A stretch of DNA of 11,821 nucleotides from Prochlorococcus sp. AG-355-B18 (GTDB taxonomy: Bacteria > Cyanobacteriota > Cyanobacteriia > PCC-6307 > Cyanobiaceae), in assembly GCA_003280965.1 (NCBI GenBank), contig QCDI01000018.1:1-11821 (forward strand), read 5' to 3'. How positions within the stretch are numbered: position 1 is the stretch's first letter; every line of letters begins with the position of its first letter. A model generated the notes under the pieces. The model saw only the letters and a program-made list of their open reading frames with translations, was not told the origin of the DNA and searched no databases. Positions 644 through 10,574 of this stretch are shown piece after piece. Both the position numbers and the translations under genes were made by a program.

Positions 644-663
644 ACCAAAAAGTCAACGATTAA

Positions 664-1158
664 ATGAAACGCTTAGCTTTATTTATTGTTTTCCCACTTA
701 TATTTGGTTTTGGAAACGATAAAGCAAGATTATGCGAAGACCTTAAATTTGCAATAAATAAATCAAAAAATGATTATCAGCAAAAAATATCATTTGCAAA
801 ACAAAGCAAAGAATTTGCTAATGATAAAATTACCAAAATTTATGCAATAGAAACAAAATGGGAGGATCTTTTTGATAGTCCTTATGAAATAGAAAGCTTA
901 TGTAATGAATATTTCTTAATAAAAGAATTTGATATTGATTTATCTAGTGAATGTTATTTGTTTGAAACTATCTTAAAAAGTGGAAATTATAGTGATGAAG
1001 ATTTTGATTTCATGGCAGAAGAAAGAAGACAAAATGCTCAAGCTCTTATAGAAGAATTTAAAGCCAAATATGATCAAATTAATAAACAAGCAAAAGAAGA
1101 TTATTTATCAGAACAAAAAGAAATGCAGAAAATATATCGAAAGAAAAAATGCGATTAA
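664..1158 (+). CDS. Hypothetical exported or membrane-anchored protein (164 aa), helical and charged
   Basis: ORF track. MKR plus a hydrophobic N-terminal stretch; no recognisable domain. Confidence 0.75.
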   Translation: MKRLALFIVFPLIFGFGNDKARLCEDLKFAINKSKNDYQQKISFAKQSKEFANDKITKIYAIETKWEDLFDSPYEIESLCNEYFLIKEFDIDLSSECYLFETILKSGNYSDEDFDFMAEERRQNAQALIEEFKAKYDQINKQAKEDYLSEQKEMQKIYRKKKCD

Positions 1159-1176
1159 GTCACTTATGGTTTTTAA

Positions 1177-1263
1177 ATGAAACGCTTACTACTGGCAGCT
1201 AAATTAAATAGGATTGAAAGTCGATCTAAATCTAAATTTAAAGATAAATTAAATGCTTTTTAA
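1177..1263 (+). pseudogene. Orphan leader stub MKRLLLAAKLNRIESRSKSKFKDKLNAF (28 aa)
   Basis: The first 17 nt (ATGAAACGCTTACTACT) are identical to the leaders at 1914 and 3093. It then loses hydrophobic character and stops at 1261-1263. Confidence 0.5.
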
Positions 1264-1305
1264 ATTATCGTTTTTAAATTGAAATTATATTATTCAATTT
1301 TAGTT

Positions 1306-1626
1306 ATGGCGTACTATCACGTTCATGGATTAATTCCTGATGGAATTTCTCAAGCTGAAGGTTACAAAATGTTTGAGCAATATATTGCTTCCGGTGCACC
1401 AATGGATAACTTTGAAGGATTTGAATTGATAAGTAGACTTCATGCTCCTGAAACCGGAGAAGTTTTTGTGACTTTCAAAGCTGATAATCACTTGGCAATA
1501 TCTGAACATTTCGGAGTGTGGAGAGCAAAATTTGGCCTCGAATGGAATATCACTGCTGTTTTAAATGATGAAGAAGTCATTCAAAGAAATAAGCAGGTTG
1601 CGGATGCTGTTGCTGCGATGGGATAA
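1306..1626 (+). CDS. DUF3303-like protein (106 aa)
   Basis: ATG at 1306 is preferred over TTG at 1279. The motifs 'FELISRLHAPETG' and 'EHFGVWRAKFGLEWNITAVL' resemble the picocyanobacterial DUF3303 family (from recall). Confidence 0.7.
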   Translation: MAYYHVHGLIPDGISQAEGYKMFEQYIASGAPMDNFEGFELISRLHAPETGEVFVTFKADNHLAISEHFGVWRAKFGLEWNITAVLNDEEVIQRNKQVADAVAAMG

Positions 1627-1654
1627 TTTAATTGAGTGACAGTCGATCTATATT

Positions 1655-1676
1655 GGAGGGATAAAATCCTCTTTTT
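1655..1676 (+). terminator. Possible weak intrinsic terminator
   Basis: GGAGGG-ATAAAA-TCCTCT hairpin (6 bp, two G:U pairs) followed by TTTT, about 30 nt after the stop at 1626. Confidence 0.35.
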
Positions 1677-1685
1677 ACATTATTT

Positions 1686-1913
1686 ATGTTGAGAAAAAAA
1701 GAAAAACAAACTTTAACAAGACTCTTCCTTTTAGGAGTTGGTGCTCCAATTGGACTTGATCGCTTTTACGAAGGAGATGTAACTGGTGGATTCTTAGCAA
1801 TTTTGGGTTTTCTTGTCGCTTTGATAACAGTAGTAGGTTTGTTAGTTTGGATCTTTCCTTTTATTTCCAAAACTTTTCGTTTGCTAAGAGAATTTGAAGA
1901 TGCGGAAGATTGA
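1686..1913 (+). CDS. TM2-domain small membrane protein (75 aa)
   Basis: 'LGVGAPIGLDRFYEGDVTGGFLAILG' fits the TM2 signature (G-x-[DH]-R-F-Y-x-G...G), flanked by hydrophobic helices. Confidence 0.75.
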   Translation: MLRKKEKQTLTRLFLLGVGAPIGLDRFYEGDVTGGFLAILGFLVALITVVGLLVWIFPFISKTFRLLREFEDAED

Positions 1914-2201
1914 ATGAAACGCTTACTACTTCCACTCCTAGCTACTCTCTCTTTAGCTACTGCTGTTGAAGCAAATCTTTTTCAAAAAGAACCTACTTAT
2001 AAACAAATAGTCTCTCAATGCAAAAGACCAGGTTTGAAATATGCAGAATATAACGAAATTGGGATGACCCAATTTGCAAAAAATTACTTGGATCTTTGCA
2101 TAAAGAAAGAAGCACAAAAAGTTTTACAGGCAAAATACAATAAATGTCTCAAAAAAAATAATGCTACTTTTTGCCAACTAACAACAAAGCTTGATCCATA
2201 A
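1914..2201 (+). CDS. Secreted hypothetical protein (95 aa) with four Cys
   Basis: Sec signal peptide MKRLLLPLLATLSLATAVEA. The mature part has 4 Cys, possibly forming disulfides. Confidence 0.8.
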   Translation: MKRLLLPLLATLSLATAVEANLFQKEPTYKQIVSQCKRPGLKYAEYNEIGMTQFAKNYLDLCIKKEAQKVLQAKYNKCLKKNNATFCQLTTKLDP

Positions 2202-2573
2202 ATGAAACGCATACTATTTGCACCGTTAATATTGCTTTTAACTGAAATTTCATTTGCAAAAGAGAAGCTGAATTATACAGTTACCTCTGATTCTCAGATA
2301 CAAAACGTAAAAGGGAGTTTTGAAGCTATTGGAAATGTAGTTATTAAAAGAATTAATAATAATTTTGAAGCTTCCTCAAATAAGCTTTCTTACGATAAAG
2401 AAGCTAAAACTTTAAAGCTAGTTGGAAATGTAGTCGTTAAAAATTTAGAGTCTGATGAGGGTTTATCTATCCAGGAATCTTATGGTGATGAATTGACTAT
2501 ATTTACTGATACAGGACTTTATGAATTCAAATCTAAAACTAGTAATAGAGTAAAAACAAAACTTAAATTTTAA
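2202..2573 (+). CDS. LptA/OstA-like beta-jellyroll exported protein (123 aa)
   Basis: Signal peptide ending SFA. The pattern 'TVTSDSQ...FEAIGNVVI...ASSNKLSYDKEAKTLKLVGNVVV' with repeated GNV motifs is typical of OstA/LptA. Confidence 0.7.
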   Translation: MKRILFAPLILLLTEISFAKEKLNYTVTSDSQIQNVKGSFEAIGNVVIKRINNNFEASSNKLSYDKEAKTLKLVGNVVVKNLESDEGLSIQESYGDELTIFTDTGLYEFKSKTSNRVKTKLKF

Positions 2574-2615
2574 ATGAAACGATTATTTCTCTTATCTCCA
2601 AAAATTAGTAATTGA
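2574..2615 (+). pseudogene. Orphan leader stub MKRLFLLSPKISN (13 aa)
   Basis: TAA-ATGAAACGATTA directly after the stop of 2202-2573; ends at TGA 2613-2615. Confidence 0.45.
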
Positions 2616-2683
2616 AGTTTGATCTAAAATAAGGGCAATTAGCTTCTTTTTTTTTAATATGTTTATATAAATTCCTTAAGTTT

Positions 2684-3088
2684 ATGCGTTCACTTTTATT
2701 ATTGCCTTTGCTTTTAGGTTTTTCATTTCCAGCGAATGCAAAGTCAGAGACTTACTTTATTGATGTTTCAGCAGAAAGTATAGAAAACTATATTCTTAGT
2801 GGTAAAGATAAAAATGGATCTGTAAGTGGGAATGATCCTACAGTTACTGTTAATAAAGGAGATACTATTGTTTTTAATGTTGATGCGTTTAGTCATCCGT
2901 TTTATATAAAGACTGAATTTTCTCGTGGAGGCGGTGATCAAGTAACCAAAGGGACATTATCAGGTACCCCTGGAACTCAAGATGGAAAACTATCATGGAA
3001 CACAACGGGTGTATCAGCTGGGAAATACTATTATGTTTGTTCTCCTCATGCACCTTTTGGGATGGGAGGCTCAATTATTGTTGAATAA
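2684..3088 (+). CDS. Secreted cupredoxin / plastocyanin-like blue copper protein (134 aa)
   Basis: Signal peptide ending ANA; 'VTVNKGDTIVF' strand; His in 'SHPF'; C-terminal 'YYYVCSPHAPFGMGGSIIVE' gives the C-x2-H-x4-M type-1 copper loop. Confidence 0.8.
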   Translation: MRSLLLLPLLLGFSFPANAKSETYFIDVSAESIENYILSGKDKNGSVSGNDPTVTVNKGDTIVFNVDAFSHPFYIKTEFSRGGGDQVTKGTLSGTPGTQDGKLSWNTTGVSAGKYYYVCSPHAPFGMGGSIIVE

Positions 3089-3092
3089 ATAA

Positions 3093-3662
3093 ATGAAACG
3101 CTTACTACTCCCATTACTAGCTGCCCTCGCTTTACCAACTGCTGTTAATGCTGAAATATCTGATGAATTACATAAAAAATGTTTAGAAGCACGAGATTAT
3201 GCAGGATGTGTGAAAACTAATAAAAAACTATCTCATAAAAAAGATAAGGAAATATCAGGGATTGGAATAAGGCTTTTTCTCAATAGTGACACTGCTGAAT
3301 TAACTATTCAATCTGTAATAAATGATTCGCCTGCTGCTTCAGCTGACATTAAACCAAATGATGTAATCATAAAAATAGATGGCAAATCAACTAAAGGAAT
3401 GGGTATAAATGAAGCTGTTTCTCTCATAAAAGGACCAAAAGATAAGCCAATTAAATTAGTTTTATCAAGAATTAATGAGGCAGGTAAAAAGGAAAAAATA
3501 AATGTTCGATTAGTAAGAGATACTTTTAAAGTCTCAACAAAAGACTATTTATATGAAGGTGATTTAAGGAGGCAATTAGAGTTTTTCTTTCCAGAAAATA
3601 TAAAACAGATTTTTCCAGAAAATGATTCCTCGTCAAAGCTCAAAAAAGGAACTTCAATTTAA
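3093..3662 (+). CDS. Secreted PDZ-domain protein (CtpA/Prc-type PDZ, no protease domain; 189 aa)
   Basis: Signal peptide MKRLLLPLLAALALPTAVNA. 'SGIGI...SVINDSPAASADIKPNDVIIKIDG...EAVSLIKGPKDKPIKLVLSR' is the tail-specific-protease PDZ pattern. No S41 catalytic domain follows. Confidence 0.85.
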   Translation: MKRLLLPLLAALALPTAVNAEISDELHKKCLEARDYAGCVKTNKKLSHKKDKEISGIGIRLFLNSDTAELTIQSVINDSPAASADIKPNDVIIKIDGKSTKGMGINEAVSLIKGPKDKPIKLVLSRINEAGKKEKINVRLVRDTFKVSTKDYLYEGDLRRQLEFFFPENIKQIFPENDSSSKLKKGTSI

Positions 3663-3670
3663 ATTTCTGA

Positions 3671-3883
3671 ATGAAACGCATACTCCTAGTTGAGCTTTTA
3701 TTAGTTTTAATTACCATAATTTATGTTTCTCTAAACCCAATTTCAAGAATTTATATTGCTGATTATTTAGAAAAGATATCCTTATTTTTATTTAAAACAG
3801 TAAGTGAAGAAGATTTAAATAAGTGGTATGAAAAAAGAGATAAGTATGAATTACTTGAGAAATTAAGCGGGCCTTCTTATTGA
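3671..3883 (+). CDS. Small single-TM hypothetical protein (70 aa)
   Basis: ORF track. MKRILL leader followed by a long hydrophobic helix. Confidence 0.65.
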   Translation: MKRILLVELLLVLITIIYVSLNPISRIYIADYLEKISLFLFKTVSEEDLNKWYEKRDKYELLEKLSGPSY

Positions 3884-3997
3884 TAGATGAAAAAAAATAT
3901 AAAAGGTTTTTTTTAACTAAAAAATATGCAATTAAATCTTAAAAAAGTTTGATTAATCAATCTATTTGCGCTTACTGCTTAAATGAAATTTAACAAG

Positions 3998-4095: not shown

Positions 4096-5148
4096 ATGAA
4101 AAAGTTATTTTCTTTTGTAATGGGGGCAGCTGTTATAGGAACAGCACTTGCACCTTCAGCAAATGCATGGTGGTGGGGTAAAAAAGGTTCTGAAAAGGCT
4201 TCAATTACTGTTTATACTGCTCTAGAGGATGACCAAATACCAAATTATCTAAAATCCTTTGAGAGAGATTACCCGAATATAGAAGTTAATATTGTTAGGG
4301 ACTCAACAGGTATAGTTACTGCGAAATTATTGGCTGAGGCTGAAAACCCACAGGCAGATGTGGTTTGGGGTTTAGCTGCTTCAAGTTTATTAGTAGCTAA
4401 TGATAGAGGTTTGATTCAAGGTTATGCTCCAAAAGGCCTTTCGAATGTTAAACCAAGCTTTAGGGATCCTGCAAAAAAACCTTCATGGGTTGGAATTGAT
4501 TCTTGGATTTCTGCTTTTTGTGTTAATAAAATTGAGGCCCAAAAAAAAGGGCTATCAATACCTAAATCTTGGGCAGATTTAACAAAACCAGAATACAAAG
4601 GTCACATAGTTATGTCTAACCCTGCATCCTCTGGAACAGGTTATTTGTCAGTAGCTTCAAGATTACAAAATTTACCTTCTGAAGAGGATGGTTGGAATTA
4701 CCTTGACGCTCTTCATACAAATATTGCTCAGTATATGCATTCTGGATCTAAGCCTTGTAAGGCTGCAGGTAAAGGAGAGTATCCAATAGGGGTTTCATTT
4801 GGTTACAGAGCTGTAAAACAGGTAAATATGGGACAACCAATTGAGGCTGTTTTTCCTAAAGAAGGTTCTGGATGGGATGTAGAAGCTAATGCCCTTATCA
4901 AAAAAGACAAAATAAAACCTGCTGCTAAGACTTTTCTTGATTGGGCAATTTCTCCTGAAGTCTCAAGAGAATATGCAAAAAGTTTTGCAATAACAGCTGT
5001 TGAAACTGATGTTCCGCTTCCTAAAGGTTTCCCTTCTAATCCAGAGAAACAGCTTGCAAAAAATGACTTACAATGGGCTGCTGTAAATAGGGAGAGAATA
5101 CTAGCAGAGTGGACAAAACGCTATGATGGCAAATCTGCTCCTAAGTAA
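4096..5148 (+). CDS. phnS: 2-aminoethylphosphonate-type ABC transporter substrate-binding protein (PhnS2/AepX family, TIGR03261-like)
   Basis: The motifs 'TVYTALE', '[32 protein letters not shown]', '[12 protein letters not shown]', '[10 protein letters not shown]' and 'EGSGWDVEA' are characteristic of this family. It has a signal peptide and phosphonate gene neighbours. Confidence 0.9.
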
Positions 5149-5165
5149 AAATTAAAAGCATATAA

Positions 5166-5200
5166 ATAAATTCCATGAATTGCTAATTCATGGAATTTAT
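5166..5200. terminator. Perfect 16-bp stem-loop between the binding-protein and ATPase genes (mRNA stabiliser or partial terminator)
   Basis: ATAAATTCCATGAATT-GCT-AATTCATGGAATTTAT is an exact inverted repeat; there is no long U-tract. Confidence 0.7.
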
Positions 5201-5229
5201 CATCTAGATGAATAATTATTTTAAATTTA

Positions 5230-6336
5230 ATGATTAAAAAAGAAGGAAGTTTTAAATATTTAGAAATCAAAAATATCAGTAAAAACTTTGGGGAAACATT
5301 CGTTTTGAAAAATATTCACTTGGATGTTTTTAAGGGAGAATTTTTATGTTTATTAGGACCAAGTGGTTGTGGAAAAACAACTCTGCTAAGAATAATTTCT
5401 GGCTTAGAGAGACAAACAAATGGCGATATTGTTCAAGATGGGCTTTTAATTTCTAATTCCCCCACTGAGAAAAGAGACTTTGGAATTGTTTTTCAGTCAT
5501 ATGCATTATTTCCAAACCTTAATGCAAAACAAAATATAGCTTATGGTCTTGAAAATAAAAAAATAAATAAAAAAGAAATTGAAAAAAGAACTAATAATTT
5601 AATTCGTTTGGTTGGATTAGAAAAAAATTCTGACCAATTTCCATCTCAATTATCTGGAGGTCAACAACAAAGAGTGGCTTTGGCGAGAGCCATGGCATTA
5701 TCTCCTGGTTTACTTTTATTAGATGAACCTCTTTCAGCACTAGATGCTCAAGTTAGATCAAAATTAAGAAATGAAATTAAACTAATACAAAAGAAACTTA
5801 ATTTAACTACTATCATGGTTACCCATGATCAAACTGAAGCTTTATCTATGGCAGATAGAGTTGTAGTCATGGAAAGAGGTCATATTGCTCAAATTGGAAC
5901 ACCTTTTGAATTGTATGAAAATCCAATTACACCTTTTGTTGCTGATTTCATAGGGAAGATGAATTTGTTAAAAGGTAAATATGATAAGAAAAATTGTGTT
6001 TTTTATTATCTTAATAATAGATTTTTAATTTCACAGAATACAGAATATTCATTTTTAGAAAACTGCTTGCTTGGTATTAGACCTGAAGATATTGAAATTA
6101 TTGAGTTCAGAAAAAATATAGAAAAGGAAGAAAATATTCTTAGAGTAAAAATAAAAGAAATTACTTATTTAGGAACGATTTTTAGATTAACAGTAGTTTT
6201 AGAATCTAAGCTAGAAGAAAATATTTTTGTAGACGTTATTTCTAATCAAGTGATCTCTAATAATTTAAAAATTGGAGATTTTATAGATATTAAATTAAAA
6301 AAAGAAAAAATTAAATTATTTGAAAGTAATTTATAA
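5230..6336 (+). CDS. phnT: ABC transporter ATP-binding subunit (PhnT2-like, PotA/FbpC class with C-terminal TOBE region)
   Basis: Walker A GPSGCGKT, Q-loop FQSYALFP, signature LSGGQQQRVALARA, Walker B LLLLDEP, H-loop VTHDQ. Confidence 0.92.
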   Translation: MIKKEGSFKYLEIKNISKNFGETFVLKNIHLDVFKGEFLCLLGPSGCGKTTLLRIISGLERQTNGDIVQDGLLISNSPTEKRDFGIVFQSYALFPNLNAKQNIAYGLENKKINKKEIEKRTNNLIRLVGLEKNSDQFPSQLSGGQQQRVALARAMALSPGLLLLDEPLSALDAQVRSKLRNEIKLIQKKLNLTTIMVTHDQTEALSMADRVVVMERGHIAQIGTPFELYENPITPFVADFIGKMNLLKGKYDKKNCVFYYLNNRFLISQNTEYSFLENCLLGIRPEDIEIIEFRKNIEKEENILRVKIKEITYLGTIFRLTVVLESKLEENIFVDVISNQVISNNLKIGDFIDIKLKKEKIKLFESNL

Positions 6337-6340
6337 GTCA

Positions 6341-8080
6341 ATGTATTTTAAAAAAAATCTTAACAAAAGTTTTAACATCTTATTATTAAAAATTTTAATT
6401 ATTTTTGTATTTATATTAGTTAGCTTTTTTATCATAATTCCTTTACTTCCATTATTCTTAAAAAGCTTTAGTGATAACAAAAATAATTTTATAGGATTAG
6501 AAAATTTTATAAACTATATTCAAAATCCATCCTTAACGCAATCCTTTATAAATAGCTTAAAGGTGGCACTTACTACGACTTTTTTTTCTGTATTAATTGG
6601 ATTTATTTATGCTTATGCTCTCACGAGGACAAGATTACCATTTAAAAAATTTTTCAATACTTTTAGCTTATTTTCTTTATATATTCCACCCCTGGCTGTT
6701 GCCATAGGTTTAATTTATATTTTTGGAAAACAAGGTTTAATTACTCAAGGATTTTTTGGGACTATTCCTGGATTTGATATAAATCTATATGGTTTTAATG
6801 GAATAATTATAGGTGAAATTTTTTACTGCTTTCCTCAAGCTCTAATTATTCTTGTGTCAGCATTAAATCTTAGTGATCAAAGATTATATGAAGCAGCAGA
6901 ATCTCTGAAAGCATCTCCACTTAGAAAATTCTTAACTATTACTTTACCCAATATCAAATATGGACTGATGAATTCATTTTTTATATGTTTTATTTTATCT
7001 TTTACGGATTTTGGAGTTCCTAAAGTTGTTGGGGGGAACTTTAATGTACTTGCTACAGATATTTATAAACAAGTTGTTGGTCAACAAAACTTTGCCATGG
7101 GAGCAACTATTAGTATCTATCTTTTAGTACCCTCAATTTTGGCTTTTCTAATTGATAAAAATTTCCAAAAGAATGAAGCATCTCTAATTTCGGGAAAATC
7201 TATACCGTTTAAACCAAGGAAGAATCTGATAGTTGATTCAATAATGTTTATTTTTTGCAGTTTAATTTTGATTTTAGTAATTGGGGTCTTTTCATCTATA
7301 GTATTAGCCTCGCTGGTAAAAATATGGCCATACGATATTTCTCTATCATTACAAAACTTTAGATTTTCTAATGTAGCTGGAAATGGTTATGAACCTTATT
7401 TTAATACTGTTTTCATGTCAATTTATACTGCAATATTTGGGACTATATTTGTATTTTTTACAGCTTATTTAGTAGAAAAATTTAAACCATTAAAAAAAAT
7501 AAGAATGCTAATATACTTTTTTTCAACATTACCAATTGCAATTCCTGGCTTAGTACTTGGCTTATCCTATATTCTTTTTTTTAATAAACCTTCTTTCTCT
7601 GTCCCCTTTTTAGATTTTCAAATATTTAATCCTTTCTCATTACTTTATGGAACAATGGGAATCCTTGTATTAGCTAATATCATACATTTTTTCACAGTGT
7701 GTTTTATATCAGCAACAACAACTTTAAAACAAATTGATAAAGAATTTGAAGAGGTATCAGAGTCTTTAAAAGTTCCTTTTTATAAAACCTTTTTAAGAAT
7801 AACGATACCATTATCACTCCCAACAATCTTAGAGATAGGAAGTTATTATTTTGTTAATTCAATGATAACTGTATCAGCTATTATTTTTCTCTACCCAGCA
7901 AAAATACCAGTTTCATCTGTTTCAATTGTAAACATGGATGATGCAGGAGATACAGCATCAGCGGCTGCAATGTCTACTCTTATCGTTTTAACAAGTCTAT
8001 TCGTAAGGTTAATTTATGAATTTACTTCTAGGAATGTTTCGAAAAAATCTTCTGTTTGGATTAATCCATTAGAAACTTAA
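6341..8080 (+). CDS. phnU: Fused two-domain ABC permease (PhnU2-like aminophosphonate permease)
   Basis: Many TM helices, two EAA loops ('LYEAAESLKAS', 'FEEVSESLKVP'), 'FTDFGVPKVVGG', 'ATDIYKQVVGQQNF'. ATG at 6341 is preferred over the in-frame TTG at 6320. Confidence 0.88.
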   Translation: MYFKKNLNKSFNILLLKILIIFVFILVSFFIIIPLLPLFLKSFSDNKNNFIGLENFINYIQNPSLTQSFINSLKVALTTTFFSVLIGFIYAYALTRTRLPFKKFFNTFSLFSLYIPPLAVAIGLIYIFGKQGLITQGFFGTIPGFDINLYGFNGIIIGEIFYCFPQALIILVSALNLSDQRLYEAAESLKASPLRKFLTITLPNIKYGLMNSFFICFILSFTDFGVPKVVGGNFNVLATDIYKQVVGQQNFAMGATISIYLLVPSILAFLIDKNFQKNEASLISGKSIPFKPRKNLIVDSIMFIFCSLILILVIGVFSSIVLASLVKIWPYDISLSLQNFRFSNVAGNGYEPYFNTVFMSIYTAIFGTIFVFFTAYLVEKFKPLKKIRMLIYFFSTLPIAIPGLVLGLSYILFFNKPSFSVPFLDFQIFNPFSLLYGTMGILVLANIIHFFTVCFISATTTLKQIDKEFEEVSESLKVPFYKTFLRITIPLSLPTILEIGSYYFVNSMITVSAIIFLYPAKIPVSSVSIVNMDDAGDTASAAAMSTLIVLTSLFVRLIYEFTSRNVSKKSSVWINPLET

Positions 8081-8129
8081 ACACAACTTAAACTTAAATG
8101 AATAAACTCAATATTATGAAGAAAAAAAT

Positions 8130-8861
8130 ATGAAAATAAAACTTGTTATTTTTGATATGGCTGGCACTACTGTGAAGGATAAAAATGAAGTCACTGGATG
8201 TTTTTTAGAGGCCGCCTCAAGAACAGGTTTAAATACTAATAAAAATGAAGTTGATCGATTACATGGCATTCCAAAAAAGAAGGTCTTTCAATTATTATGG
8301 GAAGAGAGAATCGGTAAAGGTAGTAATAAATTTGAAACTTATGTGAATAAATCTTTTGAAACTTTTAAGGATATCTTAGAAAGTCACTATTTATCTACTG
8401 ATATTGAACCAACAGAAGGCTGTCTTGAGTTATTTAGATCCTTAAAAACAAAAAATATTTTTATTGGATTAAACACAGGTTTTTATAGAAAAGTAACAAA
8501 CATAATACTTAAAAATCTTGGATGGGATTTAGGACTTAATGATAATTATGTGGGAGGCTCATCTTCAATTATTGATGTATCAGTAACCCCTTCAGAAATT
8601 TATAATAACGAAGGCCGTCCTTCTCCATATATGATTCAAAAGGCAATGTATGTTTTAGGAATTGATGATCCTAAATCAGTAGTTGTTATAGGTGATACCC
8701 CATCTGATTTGAAATCAGGAGTAAGTGCAGGCTGTTTAAAATCTTTTGCAGTCACAAATGGAACTCATTCAAAAGAACAGCTTGAGGCTTATAAAAATGA
8801 TGGACTTTTTTCTTCCTTAAATGAATTTTCATCTTACTTAAATCAATTTCTTGATGTCTAA
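8130..8861 (+). CDS. phnX: Phosphonatase-like HAD hydrolase (PhnX-like / HpnX, TIGR03351-like)
   Basis: Motif I is DMAGT (the DxAGT phosphonatase form), 'LNTGF', Arg in 'GRPSPYMI' replacing the usual Lys, 'GDTPSD', and cap Lys49 in 'HGIPK'. Confidence 0.82.
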   Translation: MKIKLVIFDMAGTTVKDKNEVTGCFLEAASRTGLNTNKNEVDRLHGIPKKKVFQLLWEERIGKGSNKFETYVNKSFETFKDILESHYLSTDIEPTEGCLELFRSLKTKNIFIGLNTGFYRKVTNIILKNLGWDLGLNDNYVGGSSSIIDVSVTPSEIYNNEGRPSPYMIQKAMYVLGIDDPKSVVVIGDTPSDLKSGVSAGCLKSFAVTNGTHSKEQLEAYKNDGLFSSLNEFSSYLNQFLDV

Positions 8862-9999
8862 AAATTGTAAAACTGATATAGCTATTATTGGAGCAGGTAT
8901 TGTAGGTCTTGCTCATGCATTGTCAGCTTCAAAAAGAGGTTTTAGTGTAAAAGTTTTTGAGAGAGAAGAAAAAGCTATTGGAGCTTCAATAAGAAACTTT
9001 GGAATGATATGGCCAATTGGTCAACCTTTTGGAAAGCTATATAGTAGAGCTCTTAATTCTAGAAAAATATGGATTGAGACAGCCAAAAGCAGCGACTTTT
9101 TTTTAGATCAAGTTGGTTCAATTATTTTGGCATATAAAGAAGATGAATATCAGGTTATGAAAGAATATTGTGATTTGTCTAAGTTTAAAAATTCAAGTGC
9201 AGAATTACTTTCAATAAAGCAAATCTTTAATCTTAGCCCTTATGTTTTAAGTAAAGGATTAATTGGAGGATTGTGGAGTCCTACTGAAATGATTGTTGAT
9301 CCTAGAGAGGCAATTAAAAAGATTACAATTTTATTAAAGAATAAATATGGAGTTGAATTTAATTTTGGTACAACAGTTTCAAGTGTTGAGCCAAATTTAG
9401 TAGTTACAAGTGATGGTAATAAGATTAATACAAAAAAAAGTATAATTTGTTCAGGAGCCGATTTTGAATCATTATTTCCTCAAGAATATAAGAAATTTCA
9501 TACAACCAAAAGCAAGCTTCAAATGTTAAGAACAATTACTCAACCTAAAAACTTTAAGTTAGGACCTGCACTTTGTTCAGGTTTTACATTAACGCATTAT
9601 GATTCTTTTGCTGAATGTTCATCAATTAATTCTTTAAAAGATAGATATAAAAAAGAGTTCCCTTTTGCAATTGAAAACGGAATACATATTATGATTTCTC
9701 AAAATGGATTAGGTGAAATTATTTTGGGAGATTCTCATGAGTATGGATTAACTTTTGATCCTTTTAATAATGAAGAAATAAATAAATTTATTGTCGATCA
9801 AGTTAAGAGTTTTATAAGTCTTCCTTCAATTGAGATAGCCTCAAGATGGAACGGAATATATCCTAAGTTAATAGGAGGAACAGAGTTAATAAAAGAAGTT
9901 GATGATTCAATCCTAATAGTCAATTGTTTGGGCGGTGCTGGAATGACCCAATCATTTGGACTCGCAGAAGAAATAGCTGAAGAATATTTAAATTTTTAG
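8854..9999 (+). CDS. hpnW: FAD-dependent amine oxidoreductase, phosphonate-cluster type (HpnW / TIGR03364-like, DAO superfamily)
   Basis: GAGIVG dinucleotide-binding motif, 'GASIRNFGMIWPIGQ', 'VDPREAI', 'KLQMLRT', 'GDSHEYG', 'GGAGMTQSFGLAEE'. Its start overlaps the end of the upstream HAD gene. Confidence 0.85.
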   Translation: MSKNCKTDIAIIGAGIVGLAHALSASKRGFSVKVFEREEKAIGASIRNFGMIWPIGQPFGKLYSRALNSRKIWIETAKSSDFFLDQVGSIILAYKEDEYQVMKEYCDLSKFKNSSAELLSIKQIFNLSPYVLSKGLIGGLWSPTEMIVDPREAIKKITILLKNKYGVEFNFGTTVSSVEPNLVVTSDGNKINTKKSIICSGADFESLFPQEYKKFHTTKSKLQMLRTITQPKNFKLGPALCSGFTLTHYDSFAECSSINSLKDRYKKEFPFAIENGIHIMISQNGLGEIILGDSHEYGLTFDPFNNEEINKFIVDQVKSFISLPSIEIASRWNGIYPKLIGGTELIKEVDDSILIVNCLGGAGMTQSFGLAEEIAEEYLNF

Positions 10000-10574
10000 C
10001 TTAAAAAAATACTTTCAATTTTTGTAATAAAAAATTCCAATTCTAGGTTTTTAAAATTAGTATCTTTTGCCTTTTCATCTAATTCTCTAACCAATAAAAT
10101 TTCATTAAAAAACTGATTTTTTTCAAAACTTTTTATTTCTTCCTTATTCATTTCACCTCCCTGAACCTTCAATGATGCTACTGAAGCTGATGAAAGTTTT
10201 GCAAAATAAGAAGAATCTTTTGTACATAGGTATCTTTTGGCATCAACATGCATTCTTACGCAATTAGTAATTTTATCTGAGAAAAAGTCCTTAATAAATT
10301 CTGCACCTATTTTTTCATGATCATTATATTTAGAATAGATATCTTGATCAAGAAGTAAATGACCTACATCGTGAAAAAGGGATGCGATAATGATTTCATC
10401 TGATAAACCGTTATTTACCGCATGAGTAGCGGATTGAAGCATATGATCTGAGACTGTTATTTCCTCACCTGCATATTGTTCTTTACCTTTCTGAGAAAAT
10501 AAATAATTAATCATTCTAAAGAATTCTTTTTTATCCTTTAAATTTATATTTTTCATCAAATTAAGATGTGCCAT
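9996..10574 (-). CDS. phnZ: PhnZ/HpnZ-type HD-domain diiron oxygenase for C-P bond cleavage (TIGR03276-like)
   Basis: 'YAGE' (YxxE loop), 'DHMLQSA', 'HDVGH', 'HEKIGA', 'HVDAKRYLC', 'LSSASVASLKVQGG' and 'RELDEKAK' give the full set of metal and phosphonate ligands. The start may instead be the ATG at 10556. Confidence 0.9.
   Translation of the reverse strand: MAHLNLMKNINLKDKKEFFRMINYLFSQKGKEQYAGEEITVSDHMLQSATHAVNNGLSDEIIIASLFHDVGHLLLDQDIYSKYNDHEKIGAEFIKDFFSDKITNCVRMHVDAKRYLCTKDSSYFAKLSSASVASLKVQGGEMNKEEIKSFEKNQFFNEILLVRELDEKAKDTNFKNLELEFFITKIESIFLS

Follow-up and report, generated by a model that had tools for sequence, protein, structure and literature searches.

The window analysed here is a whole contig of 11,821 nucleotides (nt), C18 of the Prochlorococcus sp. 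AG-355-B18 genome G000 (1.58 Mb, 31% G+C, 99.35% complete). It carries an array of small genes separated by two short repeats: a leader junction, called A below, and a second island repeat of approximately 47 nt, called B. We observe exact matches to the pattern for A, TRAATGAAACGMWTA, at 661, 1174, 1911, 2199, 2571, 3090, and 3668, all on the plus strand, where 200 dinucleotide shuffles yield a mean of 0.03 and a maximum of 1; the whole genome contains 14. The seven co-oriented copies described in the initial annotation are thus real and exactly placed, and the distances it gave between stop codons and the following ATG agree with the list of open reading frames (ORFs). The stop triplet of the motif is the own stop of ORFs 1686-1913, 1914-2201, and 2202-2573, and ORFs 2684-3088, 3093-3662, and 664-1158 finish 4, 8, and 18 nt ahead of the next ATG. 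Codon counting reproduces the use of CGC for the arginine in third position in six of the seven copies, with CGA in the copy at 2571, and the two copies said to head no real gene (ATG at 1177 and 2574) are indeed without an ORF of 40 amino acids (aa). Family searches also bear out that the cargo genes between copies are mutually unrelated, comprising a DUF3303 gene, an LptA/LptC-like gene (below cut-off), a cupredoxin gene, a PDZ gene, and four genes without family.

The core of A spans about 17 to 20 nt, starting at the ATG, and continues in one of two ways: as a coding leader of approximately 60 nt for a signal peptide, or as a stump that often reaches B after 39 to 41 nt. The leaders at 1913-1972 and 3092-3151 are 83% identical over 60 nt, and three of the seven copies (661, 2571, and 3668) diverge from the consensus beyond base 12 to 14. 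At 661, the triplet is the genuine stop of a 52-aa gene in relatives, which is frameshifted in G000 by a 40-nt loss at 621-633, between imperfect 13-nt repeats. The frameshifted gene lies at 473-643; relatives and metagenome contigs keep the intact 52-aa version ending at the 661 stop.

Repeat B, which the initial annotation did not include, is present in three copies (1213, 1635, and 2611), plus a decayed one at 3883. It combines a core of 20 nt with a G/C hairpin, a T run, and often an ATG, and in its letters a -10-like box, hairpin, and T run can be read. Since B stands at 1213 and 2611, the units from 1177 and 2574 each consist of an A stump, B, and a gene; of the earlier division of the array into single A units, the positions of A hold and these two units do not. 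A and B are unrelated in sequence (local score, 4). A profile scan of G000 gives 27 matches to A and 27 to B, compared with shuffled means of 2.5 and 1.0, and these are grouped together in few regions.

Conservation and distribution of A and B

A is conserved at the level of DNA. In long ORFs of G000, CGC makes up 2% of arginine codons and CTA 12% of leucine codons, and the four codons following the ATG of A have a probability of 0.0009 under genome usage. CGC is also found in 8 of the 13 G000 ORFs that start with MKR and hydrophobic residues, a list drawn up independently of the profile. A codon-free pattern has 34 matches in five complete genomes of the genus, of which 13 are an identical 17-mer and most others are all different; in five genomes of other genera, the identical 17-mer accounts for 7 of 13 matches. 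Of the 201 families downstream of A, 109 are open for fewer than 60 codons, 65 for at least 60, and 27 lack an ATG, and non-coding stumps retain the consensus (at sites chosen by profile, which favours such an outcome). The claim of DNA-level conservation made from the sequence alone therefore stands on rare codons, on a 17-mer identical across genera, and on non-coding stumps. Further, A is confined to islands, and other MKR-type leaders vary freely in their synonymous positions; a motif just as common at core secreted genes and itself synonymously variable, which would have spoken against the initial annotation, was not observed. A itself does not display the free synonymous variation expected of an ordinary signal-peptide gene family.

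Conservation peaks over the start codon and the following five codons and has a sharp 5' edge at the ATG. Identity of the stop triplet is 0.93 to 0.96 in pairs sharing the upstream gene, compared with 0.53 to 0.74 in pairs sharing the downstream gene and 0.54 to 0.64 in unrelated pairs. As it is high only in the first group, the triplet travels with the upstream gene, to which it belongs, and lies outside the conserved exchange core, contrary to the initial annotation.

With one mismatch allowed, the 17-mer is found in all 15 searched genomes of the genus and in 17 further family genomes, all of 1.7 to 2.0 Mb, and is absent from all larger genomes among the 200 searched; the backward control matches in 5 genomes, and single one-mismatch matches in genus g57, being near this level, were given no weight. 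Among the 80 listed 17-mer loci, 67 belong to Prochlorococcus, 2 to Synechococcaceae, and 11 are unrelated single matches. High-GC relatives yield four isolated matches to the codon-free pattern in five genomes, none with a stop in front, and no A or B was recognised behind the integrases of high-GC loci. No B above threshold was found in the higher-G+C small-genome loci scanned, so that A appears more widespread than B; one genome of this kind carries three copies of a B variant.

A phage origin was considered and rejected: the A 20-mer is found in one viral stretch, bearing the same A/B copies as a chromosomal island of G000, the B 20-mer in one, and the A 17-mer in 17, as single copies mostly in one gene family, with no arrays. 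In nine viral contigs of approximately 40% G+C, one gene family opens with the exact A 17-mer, and one of these contigs (L259) additionally encodes a large serine recombinase-like ORF. Rfam gives two weak matches, neither inside the array.

Strain differences at A and B

Alignment ends of BLAST comparisons with 36 relatives cluster at the coordinates of A and B. The 24 island loci compared contain 359 unique breakpoints whose flanks are non-homologous, and 151 of these fall in A or B zones (76 in A, 82 in B), where 34 are expected under a gene-edge or intergenic null and 14 under a uniform one. The share of B equals that of A, and breakpoints do not fall at random relative to the motif. More than one downstream partner is seen, in 31 long loci, for 12/13 families of A-ended genes, 10/10 with B, and 22/82 with no site, and in 219 loci for 22/28, 17/20, and 24/96, respectively. 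Both the breakpoint and the partner ratios are inflated to an unknown degree: similarity to the window or a match to A was the basis on which many of the loci were chosen, some of the loci also served to train the profiles, and the genomes are not independent.

Gene order is not fixed across strains, and none of the three outcomes that the initial annotation named as refuting its reading was observed. The gene at 1914, which also served as the metagenome scan query, is preceded by 9 families (14 distinct sequences) and followed by 10 (13 distinct sequences), and three control genes that lack a site have a single partner each, on 1 to 8 sequences. Upstream of the 664 gene, one family is found in all seven distinct sequences, and the 661 junction was never seen swapped. 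The order in L099 is 1914 gene-A-B-cupredoxin-A*-X and in L247 cupredoxin-A-1914 gene-A*-X; A* has 11 nt in common with the A consensus. Precise empty/filled pairs at 938 sites in 242 loci comprise five A/A and four B/B pairs, with one event in both lists, and include the absence of the 2202 unit in L099; these pairs carry no direction (gain or loss), and their lack of a cross-type A-to-B class is in part a product of the design and was not used as a control. Single-gene, co-oriented units are thus gained, lost, and reordered at the site, as in an integron; equally, a conserved module stands between accessory genes, is confined to variable regions, and marks the ends of strain differences, as linkers do.

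In metagenome contig L255, two diverged PDZ alleles stand in tandem, joined at A, for which an assembly chimera is possible. In four metagenome runs, loose contig ends are found at 1212, 1912, 1949, 3131, and 3884; further ones lie elsewhere than at the sites. A joint of 1197 to 3089/3090 in two metagenomes was not counted, its short side of 21 to 24 nt being the repeat itself. No back-joint indicative of circular units was found in the contigs of these four runs, which drop rare forms and were not given an aimed search.

The features of the array are collected in Table 1. Atlas searches with the 1914 and 664 genes yielded hypothetical clusters only. The mature 1914 protein stands behind a different leader in three loci, and in one of these (L250) the leader resembles a lipoprotein signal. 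A copy of the 2202 gene, 75 to 80% identical, is found at C17:6188-6564 of G000 behind the same upstream gene, with decayed A-like ends, as if a cassette had settled there; the same settled-looking copy is present in seven further loci. The segment 3695-3887, fused to an A leader in G000, has in G030, G029, G026, and G014 a different 5' sequence without A, behind a 133-aa gene with paired Cys/His motifs.

Table 1. Junctions, repeats, and genes of the A/B array in window coordinates
Feature	Coordinates	Strand	Remarks
A junction	661..680	+	Departs from the consensus past base 14; in relatives, its TAA ends the upstream 52-aa gene
Cargo gene, 164 aa	664..1158	+	No family in Pfam or PHROG; 4 downstream partners, 8 distinct sequences
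A junction, non-coding stump (A-to-B adaptor)	1174..1212	+	Breakpoint in several strains
B core, without hairpin	1213..1232	+	Breakpoint in several strains; loose end in a metagenome
Cargo gene, DUF3303	1306..1626	+	ORF extendable to TTG at 1279; 5 downstream partners, 10 distinct sequences
B repeat, G/C hairpin and T run	1635..1676	+	Sequence
Cargo gene, 75-aa hydrophobic protein	1686..1913	+	No family match; stop overlaps A
A junction, consensus, full Sec-type signal-peptide leader	1911..1973	+	Signal peptide as read from sequence
A-to-A cassette, 95 aa, function unknown	1914..2201	+	9 upstream and 10 downstream partner families
A junction	2199..2222	+	Pattern match; strain comparison
A-to-A cassette, LptA/LptC-like fold (below curated cut-offs)	2202..2573	+	Precisely missing between the same flanks in L099
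A junction, diverged stump	2571..2610	+	Remains with upstream gene; exchange at next B
B repeat, hairpin and T run	2611..2655	+	Sequence; strain comparison
B-to-A cassette, cupredoxin (PF00127), own signal peptide	2684..3088	+	5 downstream partners, 11 distinct sequences
A junction, consensus, full signal-peptide leader	3090..3152	+	Pattern match; strain comparison
A-to-A cassette, PDZ-domain protein	3093..3662	+	6 upstream and 5 downstream partner families
A junction, diverged	3668..3690	+	Pattern match; strain comparison
Cargo gene, 70 aa, N-terminal membrane segment	3671..3883	+	ORF list; sequence
Decayed B	3883..3902	+	Full B in relatives and metagenome contigs, then other genes

Outside the array, a 54-aa gene at 318-482 matches phrog_566 (E, 1e-17; unknown function). 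A phosphonate cluster at 4096-10574 encodes PhnS2, PhnT2, PhnU2, and an HpnW-family oxidoreductase above NCBIfam cut-offs, as well as a PhnX-like hydrolase and a Phn-HD oxygenase below them. This cluster is joined to the A/B array in G030, G026, and G014 and not in G029 and G017.

Mechanism of exchange and candidate recombinases

On balance, we favour linker-type modular shuffling via the short-homology recombination of the host, in which the joint supplies start codon and signal peptide. A would be a shared linker opening many Prochlorococcus island genes and running either into a leader or into a stump and B. Wherever in the shared sequence a crossover fell, it would then move whole genes, with start codon, translational coupling, and export signal kept and the neighbours unharmed, because each unit's own stop abuts the next A or B. 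Crossovers could be made by RecA on the 40- to 60-nt homologies of leaders or B, and by slippage or annealing on 11 to 20 nt. Exchange between copies in one chromosome would lead to loss and tandem gain, exchange with incoming DNA to insertion or replacement between two linkers, and its repetition may keep the core uniform. Tycheposons would bring such arrays in, with B directly behind many of their integrases, and the maps suggest that A-type units may be able to stack up at a stump lying within a B-to-B block.

The genome contains recA, and the 40-nt loss at 621-633 shows that short-repeat deletion acts here without A. Crossover mapping by triples and rare alleles links variants upstream to base 18 to 24 and downstream from base 14; no fixed crossover point was found in A, with too few informative sites among these triples and alleles. 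Ten folds of A, A plus B, and B, most on both strands, show no attC-type hairpin (z, -0.43 to +1.54), and no convincing dyad was seen in A or B. Compared with 38 tRNA/tmRNA genes, the best local scores (9 for A and 12 for B) lie within the shuffled range, which gives no tRNA-derived att site.

Several observations weigh against shuffling by host recombination. More than half of the breakpoints (208/359) lie outside the A and B zones. Two exchanges had just 11 nt (L099/L247) and 14 nt (L007/L009) of identical sequence to rest on, which is short for RecA with its minimum homology of approximately 20 to 30 nt. An identical 17-mer with rare codons is kept across several genera and in stumps coding for nothing; it persists although homogenisation alone should allow drift, which suggests a protein reading A. 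In the closest triples, B hints at a sharp switch at bases 12 to 13 (few, non-independent sites), and no circular or linear intermediate was seen.

As for enzymes, G000 has four tyrosine and three resolvase-family recombinase matches, no match to TIGR02249 (IntI), and no IS110 transposase. A core tyrosine recombinase, located at C2:132175-133344 in G000, is present in 79 of the 80 family genomes, whether or not they carry A. The island integrases, at C1:99270-100520 and C2:3562-4752 of G000, are patchy (31/120 and 13/120 genomes). Searches of the complete A-bearing genomes G081, G111, G067, and G093 did not turn up the resident resolvase-family gene. None of the recombinases searched tracks A, which leaves the suggested co-occurrence with a recombinase without support; of the integron-like recombination site proposed in the initial annotation, the breakpoints, gain/loss, and reordering at the junction stand, and IntI, the hairpin, and a tRNA-derived att are missing. 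A resolvase-family gene lies at C4:19070-19480 of G000 (L324 1348-1971), adjoining a lipoate synthase-like gene, and a single resolvase match of similar score is present in 5 of 5 genomes of the genus. The G000 gene has a Thr at what we take to be the position of the usually catalytic Ser of the family.

Two island integrases of G000, beside tRNA-Ser and a partial tRNA-Pro, directly precede B-gene-B-gene-A arrays. Across the genus, 22 of the 42 island integrase genes with a readable end (one more was dropped) have a B no further than approximately 25 nt from their stop, versus 14 of 1,081 ORFs of G000. The other 20 integrases lack B. As the integrases are very diverse, B reads better as a cargo attachment point on the element than as their att site.

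These data bear on several other explanations. A and B could be targets of site-specific recombinases acting in trans, in a two-site, integron-like system with circular intermediates, the enzyme being the core tyrosine recombinase, a tycheposon integrase of relaxed specificity, or an unrecognised one. The fixation of the 17-mer at synonymous sites across genera, exchanges on as little as 11 to 14 nt, the sharp 5' edge of A at the ATG, the integrase-B-gene-B-gene-A-gene-A arrays on two contigs of G000, and the frequency of B just past integrase stops all speak for this explanation. We nevertheless regard it as unlikely, if the most serious competitor, since there is no dyad, hairpin, or fixed crossover, the integrases preceding B are 27 to 100% alike to two unrelated queries, which makes B an unlikely cognate site, the core enzyme is present irrespective of A, the resolvase-family gene is not found in those four complete A-bearing genomes, and neither IntI nor an IS110 transposase is found in G000. 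Rather doubtful as well is a gene-capture system of its own, in which a protein would recognise A (for secreted cargo, with an in-frame export signal) and B (for cytoplasmic cargo), move single-gene units, load them behind tycheposon integrases, and unload them into islands.

Alternatively, A may mark an old family of secreted-protein genes grown by duplication, whose repeats only delete, so that the strains would be deletion products of longer arrays. The lack of direction in the empty/filled pairs, the short-repeat deletion at 621-633, and the many A copies that are decayed stumps are consistent with this, but the number of partners of the 1914 gene, the permuted order of L099 and L247, the two diverged PDZ alleles joined at A, and unrelated cargo behind the same leader make it improbable. 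Still less credible is a core kept by a regulatory role, through a DNA- or RNA-binding factor or a small RNA at the start codon, with shuffling as a side effect: the start codon and the five codons after it are the most conserved part, and B resembles a -10 box with a terminator hairpin, yet the functions of the cargo are unrelated, most A copies head no protein, and the array has no Rfam match. Whether by linker shuffling or by a site-specific enzyme, the layout makes exchange safe and productive, with flush stops and a crossover at or after the ATG.

Relation to tycheposons, phage linkers, and integrons

A and B provide defined coordinates for single-gene gain and loss in the islands of Prochlorococcus, the most abundant photosynthetic bacterium of the oceans, by which the process becomes testable, and a joint of the A type could account for the fast turnover of surface and periplasmic genes. 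The work on tycheposons (Hackl et al., bioRxiv 10.1101/2020.12.28.424599) describes elements of the same islands that make up only 3.6% of island material; most of this material does not derive from elements, and its gain and loss proceed one gene at a time. A two-site capture system, if true, would explain part of the material that tycheposons do not. As described there, a tycheposon moves in its entirety and uses partial-tRNA att sites, whereas A and B are not tRNA-derived and bound single genes; a term search of the main text returned no such repeat.

An island repeat named PRE1 (Coleman et al. 2006), reportedly confined to islands and approximately 48 nt long, is said to have been suggested to mediate rearrangement. 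B is probably this repeat, to judge by its length and island distribution. A differs from B, the PRE1 candidate, in being coding and in its sequence; if the published PRE1 includes the A stump, part of the finding is already known. The literature searched, which leaves out subscription journals, has no match to the A and B strings or the leader peptide, and none to Prochlorococcus together with PRE1. Nor does it hold, for cellular genomes, a joint within coding sequence that hands an export signal to whatever follows. No such repeat occurs in the portions consulted of Steglich 2008 (PMC2518516) and Axmann 2005 (PMC1242208). What appears new is that a coding junction provides the export signal and serves as a swap point on a par with B, together with the connection to the cargo of integrases.

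The closest parallel is the "linker"-mediated modular shuffling of PeSL cassettes in the T4-type phages RB49 and phi1, as described by Arbiol et al. 2010 (PMC2839356). In both systems, short conserved modules separate the single accessory genes of hyperplastic regions; insertions, deletions, and replacements map to the module, which also contributes expression signals, and no dedicated recombinase was found. Unlike the phage PeSLs, A and B reside in a cellular chromosome and are of two types, and whereas a PeSL combines promoter and terminator, A is unstructured and lies inside coding sequence, with start codon and signal peptide, which leaves B as the closer analogue. Mini-circles have been demonstrated for PeSLs in that work; A/B units are known here from sequence and contigs. 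Integrons resemble the A/B arrays in that single-gene units, all in one orientation and each bearing one site, form a stack behind a tyrosine recombinase gene and are gained, lost, and reordered unit by unit. In contrast to integrons, the A/B arrays have no IntI and no attC-type hairpin, use two unrelated sites with a crossover that is not fixed, and let A overlap the start codon of the cargo. Should a recombinase be involved, the arrays would represent a new cassette system; otherwise, they would extend phage linker shuffling to a cell. Tested as an integron, the array is not one; it looks like an integron array and works like linker shuffling of the PeSL type.

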